From NCBI RefSeq assembly GCF_040938485.1, contig NW_027271172.1, forward strand, positions 1,054,001 to 1,118,000: a stretch of DNA of 64,000 bases. The letters run 5' to 3'. This DNA is from Diadema antillarum (lineage: Eukaryota). The notes below the pieces were generated by a model. It was not told the DNA's origin. It saw only the letters and a list, made by a program, of their open reading frames with translations, and ran no database searches. The stretch's first letter is position 1, and each line of letters begins with the position of its first letter. This document shows, one piece after another, positions 3,201 to 44,569 of this stretch. A program made the position numbers and the translations under genes.

Positions 3201-6200
3201 AAGAAAAGCGTCTGAATTTGCATGATTTCATCTGATACTCTGCCTTTAAGATGAAGAATTGGTTAAAAGCTGGCATGAAAAATTAATGCAAACTTGCATT
3301 TATCTCCTTGTGAATTTTACCTCACCAACTAGATGAGATACTCCTTGAACTGCAATTTATTTTGTTGACTGATTTTTTTTTTCCATTTTTGTATGTGTTG
3401 TTAATAGTAATGTTTAAAAGTGGCTGGATGGTCTAGGAAAGAATCCATTATAAGGTTGATTTGGCATTTCTGTTTAAAACTCTCTATTAAAGATTTAAAT
3501 TTTTGGCTAGAGTTTCCATTTATTTTGTGATTTCATAGTGACTTGTTATTTGATCTCGTCCTCAAAATACAACTTAAGTCCTACAACTTCAAGTTCATAA
3601 AATGTCAGTATGAAGTATTTTTCAGCAAGAGAATCATGTTTTACTGTACATGATGTGAATGGTCTGGGCAGATTTTTAGAATGAGAATTTCTGTGTAACA
3701 TACCTGAAGAGACGACAGATTGAAGCTGTCAAGTAGGTTGTGGTATGATTTACGAGAACGCATGATGCAAAATATGGTGCCAACCATGGTAGATCCTCAT
3801 GGCAAAATCTTGATATCATGATTATTGTTTGTGAGCCATGATAAGTTCAGAATTCTGGAGATATGATTTCAAAATATGTATTCATGTGACCATCTAAACA
3901 TTTATTCATCTCACACAAATCTTCATTAATGCCAAATGAATCCTATTGTGATTCATTTGTGATTTTGTTGAAGTCATCATTATGTAGATGTAGGGATTAG
4001 TGGAATAAAAATAACATTGAATTTTTAGCTCTAGCAACGTACATTTTCAAACAATAATTTTATCTTATCATTGATTCAACATACCGGTACTATAGAGCAT
4101 GACATTTTTGCAGCATGAAATTTTCAGCATTCAATGCAGATACAATTGTAGTGTCGACAGGAACTTTAGCTTGCAATTTAATTTCATAAATCTTGGTATT
4201 CATGAAAGTTGCAAAATTACAATGCACACACACATTTCGGTTTTACAGTACACAAGTATAGGCCTACGTAGCTGCTACAAAAAGTATAGGATGGTGCAGG
4301 TTTCTGTTATTGTCACATTTGGTGGGTACTTCAATAATGAAACTGCAGTGACAAATGTGTTTTGTCAAGACAGACTTCAGCATTGAGCATGAACTGAGCA
4401 TGCAGTAGGTCTCACTTGCAGTGTAATGCATCATTTGAAAGGGTTGTATTACGGGTTATCAACATCTAGCATCTGTGGTCAACATATTAATACTAAAAAA
4501 AAAAATACAGCATACCCATAGTCAATTCAAGAAATTATTTTAATGTATTCCAAATCTGATTGAATTAATGCATCATGATTGAGTATATTGTAGATATGAG
4601 ACCCTAAAAATGTAATTTTTATCAGTCACCAAGAATATCCCAAGATTACTCCATAGTGATGTCAATTATTTACCAACATTTTCATACATACATGTACATT
4701 GTACTTCACATTACAAGTACATGTGCATATACACGTGTACGTATTTGTATATATGGGTGTACATGGGCCTTATCTTGCCCATCACAATGGTTGTTACACA
4801 AAATAGACTCATTGTGACTTTGATGAAATTCTCACCTGACAAGTTTGCTGTTCAAACATAGTGTAGAATTCTATTGGTACTTCAGGGCGGCTGATGTTAC
4901 CAATAGCTTATAAAGTGGACCTTATTCTTATGTTGATGCTTCAAATAATGACTTTCACATTTGCAGGAAATAGAATGAAGTTCATGTTACAGCCGTTTTC
5001 AATGCTAATCATGTAGCCAGTTGTTGCCAAAATGGAATGAGTGTTATTCTGATGTTCTCAATCACAAAATTGTTGTCAGTTAAGTTGAATGGGAAGTACG
5101 ACAACTACAAACTTTGATGTCTTGAACTGTAAGGTACTATATGGTAATTTGAAATTCTGTCTCTTAATTATTTTGTCCTACATGTATAGAATAAAAGAGT
5201 TTCTTTACCATTTTCATCAGCATTGCTGTGTAATTCAAAACTATTGATGTTTGTACTTGATGAACAATGATCCTAAATGGGTCTTTTTCACACAATTTCT
5301 GAAATTGTACTGTCTGGTTCTCTTTCTGTTTTCATCCTTTCCTTCTTTTCTGCAGTTCCCTGGCAGTTGGGACAAAGAACAGCTACCGGCTGTTTTCTCT
5401 TACATCTGTAGACAAGCTAGAGCAGATTTATGAACATGGTAATATGCACATTAGTGAGTGACCTCACTAAACACTTGTTATACATGTAGATATATGGTAT
5501 CTTTGTTGTAATAGAAACTGGTATAATTCTATAATTTTTTGATGATTAAAGATAATATAAAGTTTCGGTACCTCAAAAGTTTCCCTGAATTTCCTTGTCT
5601 TAGTTTGTGTTTCAGGTTAAAGTACCTTTCATATAACTAACACTGTGAGACTTACTCGCCCCAAAGTGCTCTCATGTCTAGTAATCATGCAATTAACTGC
5701 GACCAGCAGCCCCATACGCATAGCGTAATGGGGCTTCGCATTGTAGCATTCAGGATCATGACAGATTTAGTATCGCGGGTAAATATAAACGTAAAATCCA
5801 AAAATTTCTTCAATTTGAAGACTTACCAATTAAGTTGAAATATTGAAAACAGGCTTCGGGCAACGTTTGGTTCTGCCAATAAATAGTCCCTTTCTGTTCG
5901 AAATGATGACTGAATGTGACTCGGTCGAGAGGACCTTGGGAGAGCTACATACACTGAATACTACAGCCAGCGCATGCGCACACATCACATGCGCACAAAT
6001 TTCAAATCCATGAACGGATAAGATGCTTGTGTGTGCATGCGCCGGCCGTCAATTCAGTGTAGCTCTCCCAAGGTCCTCTCAACCGAGTCACATTCAGTCA
6101 ATATTGAACAGAAAGGGACTATTGGCAAAACCAAATGTTGCCCGAAGCCTGTTTTCAATACTTCAACTTAACTGGTAAGTCTTCAAATTGAAGAAATTTT

Positions 6201-9200
6201 TTGGATTTTAAGTTGATATTTACCCGCGATACTAAATCTGTCATGATCCTGAATGCTACAATGCGAAGCCCCATTTAGCTATGCGTATGGGGCTGCTGGT
6301 CGCAGTTCGCTATGCGAATGGGGCTGCATGCTGCTGGTCGCAGTTCTCATGCAATAATGCATGTGAATGGTTTCGTACAATACGTGTACTACCTCGCCGC
6401 CGTACGGCGGCAGCTCTGGTACGAAACCATTATTGCATGATTACTAAGACATGAGAGCACTTCGGGGCGAGTAAGTCTCACAGTGTTAGTTATATGAAAG
6501 GTACTTTAACCTGAAACACACACTAAGACAAGGAAATTCAGGGAAACTTTTGAGGTACCAAAACTTTATGATCTTTAAGCATTCAAAAAGAAAGATGATC
6601 TCTGTAGGTCTTGATCTTCAACAATTATGAACCAATCTGTCTCATTCAAAGATTTTCTCATATCTTCATCGAATATCTTTCCTTATGTCAGCATGTCTTG
6701 TACAAAATGTTTTTTTTTTTTTTTATTCTGGATAATGAAGTTTCAGACATCTTATGTATGTCAGTTTGCTGAAGATCTGAAGTAAGACTTTCATTAGGAA
6801 ATTCTCTGCTATGGTTGTTGTGGTATGCGTCATGTTACACTATGCCCTTCATAGCTTGCATGGTCTTCAGGATACATCTAAAAAAAAGATCCAATGACAC
6901 AAGAAGTAATAAATTGAGGTGAAAGTTCTCCAGTCAGTATCACATTAATGGATAATCAATCATGGGTTTTGATTCAGCCAGTGTGCCCTGGTTTCAGGTC
7001 GCATCGCTGTTCTGTACTCCGCCCTCATTTTAGAATTTATCCCCATGTTCTGTTGGCAGAATCGGAAGACATCTGCATCGTGGAGAGGCTCTTCTCCAGC
7101 AGCCTGGTGGCGGTGGTCTCTCTCACGGCACCGCGCAAACTGAAGGTGTGCCACTTCAAAAAGGGCACGGAGATCTGCAACTACAGCTATTCAAACACCA
7201 TTCTTGCTGTCAAGCTGAATCGCAAGGTGAGCAGTCCTTCTCTTCACTGACTATGACTCTTCAGCTTTGATTGTTGATTTTTCATTTTCCTCTTTGTCTC
7301 TACCCTCACCCCATTCTCTCTCCCTCTCACTCAACTGCTCCCCTAGTTTTCTCGTGCACAAGTTACAGGAAGTTGTAGTAAAATAGCAACGAACTTATAT
7401 CAGAATATTTCATGTCGGACCTTTCATAACTTGAATTGTATCAGTCAATTCTCTGTGTAGCTTTCCTCAAAATAATAACATTTAGTGTCACTTCGTGTCT
7501 GGAACATGCATTATCTGCAATCTTGAATATTGATTCATTGCACGTATTAATCATTGATATGTTAATTCCATGCTTATTGTGGAAAGAGATTTGTATACTG
7601 AGCACTTCAAGTTAAGTTTGTACACATGTTTAACAGTCTACATTTATGAAATATTCAGTATGTTTGCATGCCTGCCAACTGATCAATTTTAATCCGAATA
7701 TTCAGATTTTGCACTGAAAGAAAACACATTAATTTCAGTGTGTTCTGATTTTTTGGAAATATCTGTTAATAGTTATATGAAATTTATGAATGCTCAGATT
7801 TTTAAATAATTTTTCTTTGTTTGTTCAGATTTATTAAGTCTCAGGGTTGGCAGGTATGTGTTTGTATAAAATGTACCGATACCTGAGTCATTATACCAGC
7901 TTCAATTTTAATGTAATAATATCACTAAGAGCAGAATTACTGTATGTTTGGAACTTGACATCTGACAGGTCAGTAAATATTGTAAACCATCTGGTATTCA
8001 AGTGCCACCACTTTTAAATCAAAGTGTGGTTGGTTGCATGTTATCAGTCTTTAGATAAAATATTCGAATACAGAGCCATTATAGTATTTAGATTTAGCTC
8101 TTACCGACCTTTGTTTTCCTTGCATTGCTTGTTCCAAGTTCATGTCTTTTTGTTGTTGCTGCATTGAGCAGTTTAAGGATATCTTTGCCTGCCCATTCAT
8201 TTGACATCAAGAGTATTGCAAGCAATTATATATTAAGAAATAATACGGATTTTTACATCAATCAGTTAACATCTTTGGAATATTCCATTGTATCCAACAC
8301 TGATCTCCTGCCTGAAATCCACTTCTGATGATACTGATGCTCATGAAGTCAACTGTATGCATAATATGTGTGAAATGTGTGGCAGCCCTTCTCTTCACTG
8401 AAGTGGCCTTGCTGACACGTTCAAAGCACACCTTGTTAGGGTGACCTTGTGTTTTAATTTGACTTTTTTCCCCCAACATAGTGGTAGCCAAGGCACTTCA
8501 ACTGACAGAAAATGAGTCATCACATTTTGTTAGCATAGCTCTGTGTTAATCTATTATATGGCTTCGCCTCCCCCCCCCCCCCCTTTGTTAATAAATGGAA
8601 TTACGATGCAATGATAAAAACATTGTTTGGTTTTTAAGTTTTTCTATTGAATCCTGTGAAGATGCATTCTATAATAACACACATGCCCACTCAAAGACAG
8701 ACAGACAGACAGAAAGACATACACACACTCATGTACATGAATAGAGCATGAAAATTTGCTCGTTAGATAGAGACCTGCCCAGTGTATTTGCTCTAACTGA
8801 CTCTGTCTTCAGAGACAAAAACCCATCAAAAGAATTACAGGAGATGGTGAACTCTTCCAACTGCAGGCATAAGGGTATCATTGCAGTTCCCTTTCTATGA
8901 CCCAGGTCTACTCATTTACTGTGCATTTTAATGTGATTCTAGGTTGACTGCAGTGAAATGACTTCAGAATATCATTACTAAATGAGGGTGCACCTGTAAT
9001 GCAAGAGTTTATTGCATGGAACAGAGAACTTTTATGGCATTTGTAAATGTGTATACCCATATTTTCACATTATCATTATACCTTGTAGGCTTGTACATGA
9101 TAAGTTACCTACAGTACAGTGTACATGTACTGGACGTACTGGACAGTTTTAATAGAGTGCTGAGCACATGTATACATTGTGGACAAAAACAGCGTATCCA

Positions 9201-24312: not shown

Positions 24313-24356
<44 letters not shown>
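24301..24356. repeat. (TA)n microsatellite at the PLE 3' flank
   Basis: Direct reading; a second (TA)n at 25409-25430 flanks the other end. Confidence 0.9.
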
Positions 24357-24361
<5 letters not shown>

Positions 24362-24447
24362 CAGCAATAAATAGTTTCTGCTCGGAGTCCTAAGAAAGTA
24401 TAGATTCACAACAGTAGGTCAATATAAACTCCGTTGGAGACGTAAAT

Positions 24448-24484
24448 TTGACGAATTTTCGCCCATAGGGCTTTGTCAAGTCAA
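24448..24484 (-). ncRNA. Candidate minimal type I hammerhead ribozyme (U3-A8 variant) in the PLE 3' repeat
   Basis: Minus strand 5'-TTGAC TTGACAA A GCCC TAT GGGC GAA AATT C|GTCAA-3': stem I TTGAC/GTCAA, core UUGACAA, stem II GCCC/GGGC, GAAA, palindromic AATT stem III, UC cleavage site. Folded by eye. Confidence 0.6.
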
Positions 24485-24735
24485 TACATTTGACACTTTA
24501 TTTTGAAGCAGATCAAAATAAAAGATGCGTCGTCACTGTGATGGTAGCGCGTCCATAACAAGATGCGCACATACACAAATAGCGCACAAGGGTGCACATA
24601 GACAAATAGCGCACAGGTAGGACGTCACAAAGAAAACTAGGAAGGTAAGGAAAATACAAGAAGTGTACAAAATAGGACGTCACAAAGAACAAAGAGAAAG
24701 CACGTCACAAAGCAAGGAGGTAGAAAATTGCAGAT

Positions 24736-24768
<33 letters not shown>

Positions 24769-24813
24769 AGAAGGAAATGATAAAAAAGAAAGATTATTCC
24801 TTAACGGAGAAAG

Positions 24814-25328
24814 AACATTCAGTCCATTGGGGTGAAGGCAGCTGAGGCGATAGATTAGTTGCTCTTCTCGTAGTTTGCGGACTTCGTCTGGGCCATCATG
24901 ACAGGTCGTCATTACACCGATCTTCAGGTGGTTAATGGTGTGCCCGGGCCGGTTGAAGTGCTGGGCCACTGGAAGTCCCGGTGTATTGAGCCTTACTGAT
25001 CAGAGGTGTTCGGTTGCGCGGTCTGCTAGTCTCCGTTTCGTCTTACCTATGTAGATCTTGTGGCAGGCTGTACAGTGATCGCGTAGACCACATTCTCAAC
25101 GGTACAGGTGAACCGATCGCGAACAACCCAGGTGTATTTAGGACCTTTGATGTGTGCTGCCCTATCCACATGGCTACATGTGTTGCACCGTCTCCTTCCA
25201 CAGGGTTGGGTACCGCATTCCAAATCTGCTTCAGACTGTGCCTGGACCTTCAACCCCGTGTGGACCAACAGATCCCATAGACTCCGGTCCTTCTTGTATG
25301 CTACGAGAGGAGGCTCTTTGAAGATTTG
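24814..25328 (-). pseudogene. Degenerate PLE ORF C-terminus: RT-thumb end, Cys linker and GIY-YIG endonuclease
   Basis: QIFKEPPLVAYKKDRSLWDLLVH...GTQPCGRRRCNTCSHV...FTCTVENVVYAI[frameshift ~25073]CTACHKIYIGKTKRRLADRATEHL*(25000-25002)SVR...PVAQHFNRPGH...RKLREEQLIYRLSCLHPNGLN. Confidence 0.88.
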
Positions 25329-25634
25329 CTTGGTGGATGCATCTTGGTGGATGCATCTCCGTCAAATTTACGTCTCCAACGGAGTTTATATTGACCTACT
25401 GTTGTGAATATATATATATATATATATATATGTCAAATATGATTGTGAAACATCATATAATAAAGAAGTTATACAGTATAGGGGGCACAATACCCCCCCC
25501 CCCCCCCCCCTTGCCTGGAAGGGGTCAAAATAGCTTGGGCTTTATAGGGTTACCAGTGATAAACAATATGTTATCAAAAGTTTAAAAGTTTTGAAGTACA
25601 GCATCATGAAGAGTTCACAATGTAATTAACCAGT

Positions 25635-38259: not shown

Positions 38260-41200
38260 CTACTGGACATTCTGCAGCTTGAGTGACCATGCCCACTGAC
38301 AGGGGATTGTGGCCGGAGTGAGGCTGGGCAGAATGACGGTCATTCCCACCTTACCAGGGGTTCCTGTCCACTTGAGGGGGACAGAGTAGCCCAGCAGGGT
38401 GACCATGGTCTGGGTGCTGGAGATGGGGTCAGACAAGACCACTTGGTTGCTGGCTGGCCAGTCCAGGAAGGTGGCGTAGACAGTGGTGACCCCACCTGTG
38501 GTCTTATTGGTATACCTGTAATCAACACATGAAGCATGGGATGAAAGTTAAGCGGTGATATGTTTCAAATGCTACATGTATACACATGCTTTGATAAGAA
38601 CATTCTCTGAACGAATTGAATGAAGCATTCAAATGAAAGAATTAATACACTCAAAAATCAATCAAGCAACCAATTCTCGCCACCGACAATAGGCGATATC
38701 AAACCTCTCAGGCCGGGGCAGTAACTTCTGGTTTCATGCGTGCGATCTAGCTCGATGCATGGCCTGTGCATGTGGTGCACCTCTACTGCTCGGCGCACGG
38801 ATATTAGTCCAGTTTTTTCCTTTTAGCATCATCAGAAGTACACTCTGCTGCCTCACAGAAAAACCCCATGGTGTAATGGATAGTTTTATTTGGGAAATAA
38901 ACAAACTAAAGTCTAAACAAATATATTTCTTTGGATCCAAAACAAAGCTGGCAAGTTCGCCAATAGAAAAGCACCCAGGCAAATGAATAACCAGAAGTTA
39001 CTGCCCCGGCCCTAGAGGTTCGATATCGGAGGTATCGTACGATATCACTTGATATCGCCTTGATATCGCCTACTGTCGGTGGTGAGAATTACTGAATGGA
39101 TTAATTTGGATAAATTACCTGAATGAACATATGTGGGCAAGGATGAATGAGTGAAAGAATTAACAGCTTGCATGAATTGAATGATTGAATGAATGTGTAA
39201 GTGAGTAAATTAGTGAATGACTGAATGATAAAATAAATGTAAGTGAATTAGTGAATGAATGAATGCAGGTGTGAATAAATTAATGAGTGCATGAATGAAC
39301 TAGAAAAGCACTCTGAGAGCGCAGTTATCCGCCAAGCATGCAGCTAATTTCCACCACTGATCTTGTTCTTCTATAGAGATATCAGTGATTTCCACCCATA
39401 CGTACTTATATAGCATTGTGTGCAGAGTCGCCCGATTTCCCAATATAGAAGCCTTTGTTACGTCATAAACCCTCAGCTGCACGGCGCGCCTCGCCCTAGC
39501 AGAAACTAGAGCACGCTCTTTAGTGCGCGCATGCAAACCTCAAATATGCGCAGCCTGAACTCGCAAGTTAATAGACCTTACCTGCCAAAATATCAAAAAT
39601 CCTTCATAAATTCCCCAAAAATTCTCGGATCACTACCAAAAGTTAATCGTTTGGTACTTGTGTCATTCTCAACCTTTCCTGCAAGTTTCATCCCAATCCA
39701 TTAACTACTTTTTGAGTTATGTTGTGCACGGACAAACTAACAAACGAACAAACCAACGTTAACGAAAACATAACCTCCTCCCTTGGCGGAGGTAATGAAT
39801 GAATGAATGTTAGAACATATGAATGAGTGAACAGTAGAGGAAATACATCACTCACCAGACATCTGGGGTCACAGTGTCGTTCTGTTTACGCCACGGCCTG
39901 GTCTCAAAGATGGCCTCCCCGTTGACCTTCAGCCACGCCCCCATGGAGCGGAGGCGCTCCTCAAAGATGGGAACGATGCGACCATCAGCTGTGGGTCCGA
40001 TGTTCATCAACAGGTTGCCATTACAGCTATAAAGGAACAGAAGTTACCAGCATTACAATGGTTATACTTCACCTGCATTTGGACAGTGCACAATATGATC
40101 AACAAAAATATGAAATGTAGCAAAATTGGGGTCAACTTTTTTGAATAGACAGGCTAACAATCTGTTGTAAGGAGTTGCAGGCTCTCAATCTATTTAAAAT
40201 CTGTTGATCTTCAGAGCACTTCTCACTCATGTACACAAACTCTATCAGGATGACAAATGGCATCTGCTTATCATGTCCCACAAACCATCTGCCACCTCAC
40301 CATACAAGATCTAACTGTTGTACAAGTATGTCAAACAAGTTTCAACCCAGACCCAAGTCTATACTGACCTGACAGTGCTAACTAGGAGTTCGATGAGTTC
40401 GTCCATGTCCAGGTAATCAGCGAGGACGGCCTCCCGCCTGAAGCCCCACGACTTCTTGTCAATAGTCATGGCATTCACCCACTTGCGCTTCTGAAGGGTC
40501 CCTGCAGAAATGAAGGCATACAGTATGTGCATATTACTTCAGGTTTAGTGGCAGGTATGGTGGAGCATTTCATGTGCAGATATGCACCGCTGATCCACAA
40601 GGAGAACATCAAGAGTTTGGCATATTCACAGGGATCCAGGGGAGGTGCCTTAACAAAATCAAAGGGGGGCGCACGGCTCCCGCCCCATTTTCTTCTTTTT
40701 ATTTCTTTTTTTTAAACAAAACAAAGAATAAAGTGGGGGTGCGCACCCAGAGCACCCCCCCCCCCCCCTGGATCTACCACTGCATCAATACTTCAGGTGC
40801 CAGAATGTTTGGAAGAAGGTTGCAAGTTTTGTCTGAGCCAGATGTTACCCCTTTGAGAAAAGAGGGAATTAGACCATATGATGACAACCAACATCTCCAG
40901 ACACTTGCCAAAAACAAAACAAAACAAAAAAAGTAAACAAATGGAAAAAAAAAAGCATTTGCACCCTTTGCATATCCTAGTAGCAGATTTAGGCAAAAAA
41001 TTGTTGTCATATACCCTTATATGACAACATGCTCTATAGATCTTTTTGTTTAACTGTCTTTTTTTTTAACCGTCTTTTTTTAAAACACTTACTGCTAAAT
41101 ATTCCTTAAGAATAAAAGAATGTAAGGAAAACAAACAAATAGCATTTGATCCCAAGGAAATACTACATTGCTTTAAACACACCTGGGCTGTATCTGTCTC

Positions 41201-44200
41201 CACAAGTAAGCACTCCACCATGGTGGCACTGGATGCCCTGTCCCCATCGGTCATTGGTCACTACTTTATCTTTGACCGGACTGACAAAAACAACAACAAA
41301 TAAAGAGAAAATGACATGAAAGTAAGTTTGCAATCATATCACTACATCTTTTTCTTTTAGTGTGCTAACTTTCCGATTACAAACAAGACTAGTAGATAGA
41401 ACTTGAAGACTTCATGTTGATTGATTAAATTATGATACTTTTTGTTGGGAAAATATTCATAATGTGCTGCAACCTGATGAAACAGGGAAAAATACATGTA
41501 TAAGAAACTTGCATTAATACAAAAATACAATTATTGCTACCGGTACCACTTTAAAAGATATCTGTGCAGTTGATTACTTCCTTCTTTTCAAACCATGACT
41601 TTAACATGTAAATCATCAGAAATGCAAACTACAAAGAGATTCTTGTATGATTTGAACACTTGCACAAGTGTCAAATAAAATGAGACCTGGCAAGTTTGAT
41701 GACCACATAGGCTGGCACTTGGTGAAAGCTTTGTCTATTTTTGTTTGTCTAGCAGTTTTTTATTGTTATTGTAGTTTTGTTTTGTTTTGGTTTTGGTTTG
41801 GCTTTGGGTTTTTTTTTCTTTTCTTTTTTTTTGTGGGGGTGGTTGTTGTTTGATTTGTTTATTTGTTTGTTTTATACTGCCTTTGGCTGTCTACCTGCTG
41901 TTGTAGAGCCAGGCCAGGAACTCTGTACTGTTCCAGTAAGTGTCAGGGGCTCCCCAGTCACCATCGGACCAGACCAGATCTGGCTCATACTCCGTCACAA
42001 TTTCCATGAGTTCGGGCCATAGCACTTTCTAGGGGGATAAAAGAGAGAGCAAGAGAACAACTCAAATGGCAAATGAACACAACTTCACATAACACCCTCT
42101 GAACTCATGGCAGAATTATGGTAAAATGTGAAACTTTAAATACAACTACTACCTTCAGATCAATTTCATTGAGGGAGATGCTCAAGCAGAAGATATGCAT
42201 GCAGAAAATAAAATTGTAATATGTTAAAGATTACCACTTACAAAGACTAACCAACATGTCATGAAATTGTTTGGTGTACTAGTGGTCACATTTCACATTG
42301 ATTTGACATTTGTGGCATAATATTGGATTTTCCTACTACATTTCAATGTGAATAGAACACAAATTATGTGCACAAAATACTCAGCAGTTTGACTTCTCAA
42401 ACATATATATAGTGGATAGTATTAAAGTAAAAAACAAAACAAAACAAATTTGTCAAAGTTCATAAGTTCTTCAGTCCATATCCACCCACATCCAGTCTTT
42501 ATTCTTTTCTTGTTAGAACTATCATTGCTTGCTCACGTGCTGCGTGTGAGTTACCCAAGTGTTTAGAATCGTGCACTCAATACTTTAAAACCTTTACATA
42601 GAGTCAAAAGGGGCCTGAGCTTTCCATCCTATCAGAATCTTCGTCAGAGGCAAAATGACAAACAGGGAGGGGAAAGCAATCACAAGTAAGGAATACACAC
42701 AACAAGAACAGTCACGGGAGGGCTAGGGACACAGAACGAAGAAAACAAAAGGGAAGGGTTGGAGGTCATGGGCAAGGAGCCCAGCAGGTACAGGGAGGAG
42801 GATTAAAGCAGGAAGGTGGACAGACAAAAGGCAGAGGAGGGTCAGTGATAATCCTGAAGACAATGGGGGGCAACCTGTGAAGGATAAAGATGAATAGTTT
42901 TCAGCAGCCTTTTTTTGCTACCTTTATGTTACCTCACAGTACTCCTGAGTGGCAAAGTTGTTGGACTTGTCCTTGAGGTAGAGAGGGTGGAACCATTCAA
43001 AGAGAGAGTGGTAGAGGCCAAAGTGCATTTTGGTGTTGCCCCTCACTGCAGAGGCCAGTTCACCTGTCAAATGGACAAGTACATGCGGTATAATGCAGAA
43101 AGAGTGCGGTATCGACTCAAAGATTCCACTGACAATAAAAATAAAAATGATGATTTTAAATACCAACAACAATGATGAAGATTAATGATCAATACTGATG
43201 CAGAATGAAATAAGGTCTACAACATCAATGCTATTCTAAATCAAGGTGTACTAACAACTTTGCTAACATATAGATGAGAAGATCATTGACAAAGTAATGT
43301 CATCTGTATTTTACTTCTGTGCATTTTGACTATTCTTTTAAGCAATAGTTCCTCATATACAAATCAAGTTTCAAAGGCACGAGTGCCTACATCTCAAATG
43401 TTCCACTTCACGCAAATTATAGGCCCTATGTTTTTAGCATGAATACAGTAACGGTGTTATGCCAACTTCTTAATTTTTTTTTTTTTTGAGGGGGGGGGGG
43501 GTGGAGGATAGTTCAAATTCATTAAGGAAGTTTGGACAGAATATCATACCAACAAGATCCCTCTTTGGGCCTACATCCATAGAGTTCCAGTTCCAGGAAT
43601 AGTTGGAAGGCCAGTTGGTGAAGCCTTCATGGTGCTTGCTGGTGAGGACAACATATCTGAGGATCAGAAGAAACACTGAATATTTTTAAATCTGATTTCT
43701 ACTCTATGTAAAAATGGAAAGAATATAAATCTGTCCCTAAAAAATTTACGAGAATATTGCTATAAGTACAACATGATGAAATACAAGTTTTTAACAGCAT
43801 CAAAGCTAGTGAGTGTATCATCAACTAGAGATACACCTGGTTCAGAACACAGGACAACTGTTTAAAGTCACCTATCTATGGCAATCAAGACTTCCAATAT
43901 TGAGCAGTAGAACAGGTGTAAATCACAATATTACTTGCATTGTTGGTTCCAGAATCCCACTTCTGAATATCAATACATGATGGTGGAATTCTATCTCTTT
44001 ACCTCGACCTATCTAGACTCTGCTAGCTAGCTATACTAGCACCATTAATCTGCAGAAGTCACTAGTATTTAGAAGTAAATTTATACACCAGCAGTGTCAT
44101 GGAAATAGTCGAGAATGTCATCACAGGTGTAAAGTAAACTTAAAGTAAACTTTTAAAAGGTGGAAAGAGAGAAAAATGAAAGAGAGTGTAATCTAATCTT

Positions 44201-44569
44201 ATTTAATTCTTACTTTGCACCTGATGCCTTCAGAACTTCTGCCCACTGATCAGGATCGAAGAACTCAGCATGGAACATGGGTGCAAAGTCTGCGTATGTG
44301 AAGCCTGGTCGGTAGTTTTTCTCCATGAAATCAACCACCTCCTTGTCCTGTCTGCCTTTCCAGTCCTTCCAGAACCATTCGCTGTAGAAACTCGGCACGC
44401 TGAACACTCCCCAGTGAATGAAAATACCGAACTTGGATTCGTCATACCAGGCGGGTAGGGGTCGGCTGTCAATCGAGTCCCAGTTCGGCTGATACTGAGC
44501 GCTGCCCTTCAGAAAGAGAGCCGCTAAAATGCAGCAAGCGATCTGAAGCAAATTTCCGAGACTGTACAT
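38260..44569 (-). CDS. FUCA: Alpha-L-fucosidase (GH29, FUCA1/FUCA2-like), copy B, 461 aa, 8 exons: complement(join(38260..38515,39856..40026,40369..40501,41183..41280,41895..42028,42933..43063,43550..43656,44214..44569))
   Basis: [24 protein letters not shown] signal peptide, QYQPNW..., [47 protein letters not shown]. Exons 2-8 have the same sizes as copy A (107,131,134,98,133,171,256 nt). Intact 1386-nt frame with no stops or frameshifts. Confidence 0.94.
38672..39090. mobile_element. ~420-bp inverted-repeat element in fucosidase B intron 7
   Basis: AATTCTCGCCACCGACAATAGGCGATATC...GGCCGGGGCAGTAACTTCTGGTT matches the reverse complement of the right end, which has a GATATC-repeat expansion. 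AATT at both ends may be TSD or TIR. Family unknown. Confidence 0.7.
39299..39795 (+). mobile_element. Non-autonomous Helentron-type element (HINE/DINE-like) in fucosidase B intron 7
   Basis: Starts ACTAGAAAAGCACTCTGAGAGCGCAG..TCCGCCAAG and ends ACAAAC-type microsatellite + CATAACCTCCTCCCTTGGCGGAGGTAA. Subterminal inverted repeat TCCGCCAAG (39328-39336) / CTTGGCGGA (39782-39790); no TSD; sits in a (TGAA)n tract. Recognised from remembered family architecture. Confidence 0.65.
40629..40782. mobile_element. Diverged copy of the CAGTGG(C/T)(G/A)GATCCAG MITE, opposite orientation
   Basis: Ends CTGGATCTACCACTG; the GCGCACCCCC, A-tract and GCGCCCCC internal layout is shared with 13753-13888. Confidence 0.55.

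Follow-up and report, generated by a model that had tools for sequence, protein, structure and literature searches.

Insertion ends of Penelope-like elements in the genome of Diadema antillarum form a step at the predicted cut of their hammerhead motif: in two families, B and C, many inverted arms end at or 3' of the cut and few just 5' of it, and a weak excess recurs in family A, to which the copy described here belongs. We regard this step, read from sequence, as a real and testable sign of hammerhead cleavage in vivo. The copy lies in a window of 64,000 nucleotides (contig NW_027271172.1, positions 1,054,001 to 1,118,000), and it is a head-to-head Penelope insertion, probably made by reverse transcription from the two broken ends of a (TA)n target, the short arm being a likely run-off product at the RNA end left by the hammerhead's cut. 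Its features, in window positions, are:

24315..24356, no strand: left (TA)n target
24357..24403, minus: tail of 47 nt, on the long arm only (110 exact tail junctions in the genome)
24404..24452, minus: predicted 3' cleavage fragment, reaching the tail-less start site; 24404 is the fixed outer edge of the inverted arms
24448..24484, minus: minimal type I hammerhead, with C17 at 24453 and the predicted cut between 24453 and 24452
24493..24528, minus: stable hairpin directly upstream of the hammerhead, its 3' foot being the site of the larger arm-end pile-up
24529..24796, minus: remaining 3' UTR, including a (TC)n run
24797..25345, minus: 5'-truncated ORF end with a CX4CX2C linker and a GIY-YIG-type endonuclease, 96% identical to locus L083
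25346..25359, minus: junction filler of 14 nt, duplicating adjoining ORF bases
25360..25409, plus: tail-less inverted arm, which spans C17 (or +1) up to the fixed start site
25410..25431, no strand: right (TA)n target

Read along the minus strand, the copy runs from (TA)n through the inverted arm (25409-25360), the filler, the ORF end (25345-24797), the 3' UTR, the hammerhead (24484-24448), the stretch to 24404 and the tail (24403-24357) into (TA)n again. The segments 24404-24453 and 25360-25409 are exact reverse complements at 50 of 50 positions, as the initial annotation had it, and their neighbours differ on both the outer and the inner sides. The inverted arm includes C17, one base past the predicted cut; this base may equally belong to the 14-nt duplicate of the ORF, and the family reads GGAAGATGC there. 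Since C17 can be assigned to the arm or to the filler, the arm ends at 24453 or 24452, which upholds the claim that it stops within 1 nt of the cut (arm ends are numbered from the cut below, +1 being 24452 here). The ORF end carries a 1-nt loss near 25075, a stop near 25002 and a 10-nt loss near 24817. Four contig sets were compared with 24780-25409; the family was present, and no sequence in them bridges the junction of this copy. Elsewhere the window holds two long fold-back inverted repeats (726-2596 and 5557-6569, arms 89-98% complementary) and direct-repeat blocks (27842-34525 against 38260-44503, offset by 10-11.5 kb, 74-93% identity), the latter likely an old tandem duplication.

The element had been called Penelope-like, and its architecture bears this out. 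The long arm is 96% identical to L083, a natural copy with a full ORF of 949 aa that contains Pfam RVT_1. L083 alone gives no GIY-YIG match at E 0.001; it aligns at 32% identity over 779 aa, endonuclease region included, with L039 of family B, which has Pfam GIY-YIG, and its CX4CX2C linker at residue 811 falls within the CX2-5CxxC criterion of PMC8557442. The elements therefore show the layout of endonuclease-bearing (EN+) Penelope-like elements, a single ORF with reverse transcriptase and C-terminal GIY-YIG (through RVT_1 in L083 and the alignment to L039), together with 5'-truncated copies that bear an inverted pLTR and an optional tail. A partial pLTR-ORF-pLTR tandem is present in family B (L039), where the ORF ATG directly follows the tail at the tandem junction (L039:3277-3420), and no clean family A tandem occurs among the fetched loci. 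By the criteria of PMC8557442 the window element is, on its sequence, a Neptune- or Nematis-type Penelope. Non-LTR retrozymes, as defined in bioRxiv 10.64898/2026.07.22.740005, are tandem non-coding hammerhead repeats; the copies seen here do not fit this definition, being dispersed head-to-head stubs of a coding element. Neptune- and Nematis-type elements described in PMC8557442 and PMC3846280 share the reverse transcriptase and C-terminal GIY-YIG with its linker, the 5' truncation, the inverted 5'-truncated copy, the tail at one end, the (TA)n targets and the hammerhead in the pLTR; the element, its inverted layout and its hammerhead motif are already known. In the text consulted, these papers draw no link between the ribozyme and the points of truncation, unlike the pattern seen here; in them the function of the hammerhead is called unclear (PMC8557442) and self-priming on an antisense template is preferred (PMC3846280). 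Different Penelope families are also nested in each other's flanking (TA)n at L039, L045, L240 and L292, forming clusters.

The minus strand at 24484-24448 reads as the initial annotation described, with C17 at 24453, and both a descriptor and folding support the minimal type I hammerhead with a U3-A8 core that it proposed. The motif has the core boxes, a paired 3-8, stems I and II, an NUH site, an extra base (A) after A9, G10.1-C11.1 and a palindromic AATT stem III, features which match those in PMC4209133. Metazoan Penelope hammerheads described there are alike in the U3-A8 variant, the extra base between 9 and 10.1, G10.1-C11.1, the palindromic 15-16 segment, the unstable stem III and the occurrence of opposite-strand pairs. 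Of the searches proposed earlier as a check, the Rfam scan gave no hammerhead model matching the window motif at E<=10, whereas a descriptor that placed no constraint on positions 3, 7 and 8, on an additional base following A9 or on stem III found a single match in the window (24484-24448) and none in 60 shuffled windows. In the fetched loci it returned 225 matches from five families with unrelated stems; the 3-8 pair, though unconstrained, was matched (U-A or C-G) in all 225, as was the presence of the extra base, and 222 carried the AATT stem III. For 24484-24448, and likewise for three longer pieces, the minimum-energy fold contains stems I and II with an unpaired core. We conclude that the motif is real, and that its self-cleavage is predicted. 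An alternative hairpin that takes up the 5' strand of stem I (24480-24494, minus) lies 0.6 kcal/mol above the hammerhead fold in the model and is a possible off-switch. The AATT stem III (window 24454-24457) is common to family A and families B to E, which would in principle allow heterodimers to form between hammerheads of any of the five. Minimal Penelope hammerheads cleave poorly in vitro according to PMC4209133, which also states that in vivo evidence is absent; here, by contrast, genomic ends mark the predicted cut.

In family A, 101 inverted arms begin at one outer base, after AT (100 were fetched), and 100 of the 110 tail junctions were listed and examined. The edge that is fixed is thus the outer one (24404/25409), and the inner edge varies. 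Merging of copies with shared flanks or junctions left 100 insertions, whose ends were called by script and then curated by hand, with three corrected; a rival peak at reference position 3258 shrank once these were corrected. Loci reached solely by searching with cut-site patterns were excluded from the family A statistics, and 32 of 100 inverted starts, representing one insertion in a piggyBac-like carrier, were counted once. These loci (L033 and 31 more among L031-L130, e.g., L129:3723-5582) carry a family A insertion multiplied inside a carrier repeat, which encodes a 620-aa piggyBac-like transposase (PF13843) and also contains a family B stub.

Without the window copy, 63 of 86 tail-less arms pass the cut, so that cleavage is not the rule and the earlier expectation that inverted segments begin at this nucleotide holds only as an excess, seen genome-wide in families B, C and A. 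A further 17 of 86 stop 0-17 nt upstream of stem I. Four of 86 fit the cut (1.1 expected, p 0.02), compared to 3 of 82 tail arms (p 0.21, not significant) and 7 of 168 arms overall (2.7 expected, p 0.017); the cut is the top or tied-top stop position, against a background near it of about 1% of arms per base. Exact sequence patterns gave 79 matches that read through the cut and one that stops at +1, and the C17 pattern marked a true stop in 3 of 20 matches, comprising the window copy and one duplicated locus. At three independent loci both arms end at +1 to +4 (the symmetric joints of C181 duplicate the C72 locus), within reach of a 15-bp near-palindrome centred at +2. Decay of a CpG at C17 was considered as the origin of these symmetric joints; the undecayed form, allowed in the pattern, was not found. 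L249 is a cut-site symmetric insertion whose centre has been triplicated locally.

Near-palindromes and snap-back hairpins might themselves attract the joint, with the match to the cut incidental and the window copy a chance truncation. The near-palindrome that hosts the three symmetric joints and the background of arm ends near the site are what such an effect would give, as is family E, which peaks at -2 on a hairpin; self-priming at palindromic junctions has also been proposed (PMC3846280). The common AATT palindrome at -2..-5, however, attracts few joints; around the cut, no pairing of families A, B and C shows shared sequence, and the junction bases vary in B and C. We therefore think it quite unlikely that local sequence accounts for the step.

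Families B and C provide the main evidence, with control counts tallied by eye from lists. For family B, with 1483 matches in the genome (one amplified insertion makes up about a quarter of those listed), 29 of 32 matches proved to be genuine stops precisely at +1; the 27 fetched fall into 22 flank groups and about 20 distinct junctions. Upstream of the cut, we count by eye 7, 4 and 5 distinct junctions at -1, -2 and -3, about as many as expected from chance A residues following a +1 stop, and 7 over -4..-10, or about 1 per base (46 matches; sensitivity about 0.8). Downstream, where +3, +4 and +5 were counted, there are 7, 11 and 7 junctions (66 matches, about 27 of them one amplified insertion). 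The excess at +1 is 14-fold, or 6.7-fold (p 1e-8) with -1..-3 as background, the test using 8 and 24 as upstream counts. The bases that follow the +1 stops vary between copies, and therefore no single microhomology makes the peak. A recurrent +2/+6 joint was discarded as support, since its shared flanks mark one insertion amplified inside another repeat; the short family B insertion that makes up about a quarter of the listed matches sits amplified within another repeat at L268, L269, L271, L275, L284 and L287. Family C, with 510 matches in the genome, shows 13 true +1 stops among 30 matches, the other 17 being point changes of C17. These stops represent 7 junctions, spread over 8 flank groups, compared with 5 arms over -1..-11 (12 matches; 0.5 expected at +1), a 12-fold excess (p 6e-5), and about 21 arms lie over +2..+9 (54 matches). 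In both families the signal is more a step than a spike, with a modest peak relative to the 3' side, as would be seen if cDNAs ran off the end of an RNA and were then trimmed. Family E, counted by eye in the 100 of its 110 matches that were listed, has no arm at exactly +1, about 20 at -1/-2 and about 7 over -3..-10. A local hairpin at -1/-2 gives 5 nt of microhomology, which could turn a +1 end into an apparent -2 or produce the peak without any cut, so this family is compatible only.

The ends of the two arms of an insertion are coupled. Wherever a partner of a +1 arm was detected, it ends at -2 or further 3' (13 of 13 insertions in family B, 5 of 5 in family C), while most arms in unselected loci pass the cut. 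In family A, arm ends lie at most 5 nt apart in 20 of 59 pairs (4.7 expected by permutation), and the two ends fall on the same side of the cut with an odds ratio of 29. This coupling argues against a joining of read-through arms through pairing of stem I, by which the partner would only seem to start at +1: the partner end that it predicts, at the 5' strand of stem I, occurs in 0 of 18 partners, and such a joint in 0 of 32 family B matches. One cut-compatible arm among the seven of family A, L092, is of this helix-joined type, and as the main source of the step we reject such joining as highly improbable. The coupling suggests instead that both arms are likely cDNAs of one RNA, a minority of which is cut by the ribozyme; trimming of the palindrome centre after insertion may be an alternative source of it. 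Snap-back copying of the tail arm was rejected as a general origin for the inverted arms, since many of the tail-less ones exceed their tail arm in length.

A larger edge lies upstream of the hammerhead, where -39..-44 holds the ends of 9 of 28 distinct family B arms (an eye count over the listed matches gives about 26 of 72 non-carrier arms) and -37..-48 those of 16 of 36 family C arms. In family B it falls on the A of TCAGT, which we take to be initiator-like; a splice acceptor was rejected there, as no common exon-1 sequence follows the stops. In the literature, an initiator or promoter has been located in pLTRs (PMC3846280, PMC2377424). This edge, 3-15 nt before the hammerhead, is likely the pLTR transcription start. 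In family A it also coincides with the hairpin foot, and since structure may stop the enzyme, this larger pile-up lends weight to the idea that the step, too, is a reverse-transcriptase stall at a folded, uncut hammerhead or its dimer and not an RNA end. The motif does fold as the minimum-energy structure, and uncut RNA is the main substrate in vitro (PMC11167929). Yet an enzyme coming from the 3' side would meet stem I at +4/+5 and have unwound it by +1, where the edge actually lies, and stalls that occur independently would not leave the two arms of an insertion ending together on one side of the cut. A stall is in our judgment an unlikely explanation.

The preferred reading, run-off at a ribozyme-made RNA end, would proceed as follows. 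The endonuclease would cut (TA)n on both strands, and the two DNA ends would prime cDNA synthesis at different sites, one where the tail ends and the other at the tail-less site. This follows the anole element (PMC11167929), which has two such starts in vitro; by that analogy the end of the tail (24357..24403) is likely the second start of reverse transcription. The two cDNAs would usually share one RNA template and terminate close to or at its 5' end, and their 3' ends would then be joined with small trimming, microhomology or templated filler, the junctions themselves showing microhomology or filler. Most RNAs would be uncut, starting 3-15 nt upstream of the hammerhead, and a minority, accounting for roughly 10-20% of arms, would start at the cut. 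In the family B tandem of L039, the priming sites of the upstream pLTR sit directly before the start codon, and priming there on a tandem transcript would yield short cDNAs ending at the RNA 5' end.

In the case of the window copy, cleavage of the RNA would have been limited to the hammerhead of the upstream pLTR; the short arm would have been primed in that pLTR and the long arm in the downstream one. The partner arm of this copy, 1 kb in length, continues for 900 nt through an intact hammerhead. Partners of cut-site arms elsewhere do not, and the ribozyme reading is less probable here for that reason; among the 59 family A pairs, the copy is one of only 3 discordant ones, in which the tail-less arm alone ends at the cut or 3' of it. 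The copy is atypical, and as a single copy weak evidence. We lean only slightly towards the ribozyme cut as the origin of its arm end, a chance truncation being about as likely. The "cap" that was earlier thought to be a copy of the post-cleavage 3' fragment is thus better read as a run-off of reverse transcription, with the same near-even weighing against chance in this instance.

Among known systems, the anole Poseidon PAc (PMC11167929) is alike in its two internal reverse-transcription starts bounding the tail, the extension of both target strands, the AT-rich targets and the uncut main template. Cleavage is dispensable there in vitro, and the text available of that study reports no RNA ends at the cut site, whereas in the present genome the cut marks where a minority of insertions stop. 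The nearest working analogy is the 5' HDV-like ribozyme of R2 (PMC3774820), in which the cut likewise sets the RNA 5' end and the 5' junction, with joining by chance microhomology. In R2, however, cleavage is obligatory, the ribozyme is kept on the template and full-length copies are defined; here cleavage would be occasional, the ribozyme core removed and short stubs the result. Our search of the open-access literature, as far as its text was available, found no paper tying Penelope insertion ends to the hammerhead cut.

Penelope hammerheads are weak in vitro and dispensable in the one reconstituted system, whose RNA-seq likewise places no ends at the site. A base-precise step in insertion ends across unrelated families is genomic evidence that cut RNA exists and is reverse-transcribed, and the coupling of arm ends bears on the origin of Penelope inverted repeats, two cDNAs of one RNA. 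On balance we favor, by a narrow preference, the view that the minimal hammerheads of Penelope self-cleave within their RNA in the germ line, and that both arms are strong-stop-like cDNAs of one RNA ending at the pLTR start or at the ribozyme cut. Any animal assembly, as well as the in vitro system already established, offers a test of step and coupling. If this view is true, an assembly by itself would suffice to gauge cleavage in vivo for any family, through the ratio of the two edges, and cleavage would put a brake on the element, part of whose progeny would lack ribozyme and promoter.
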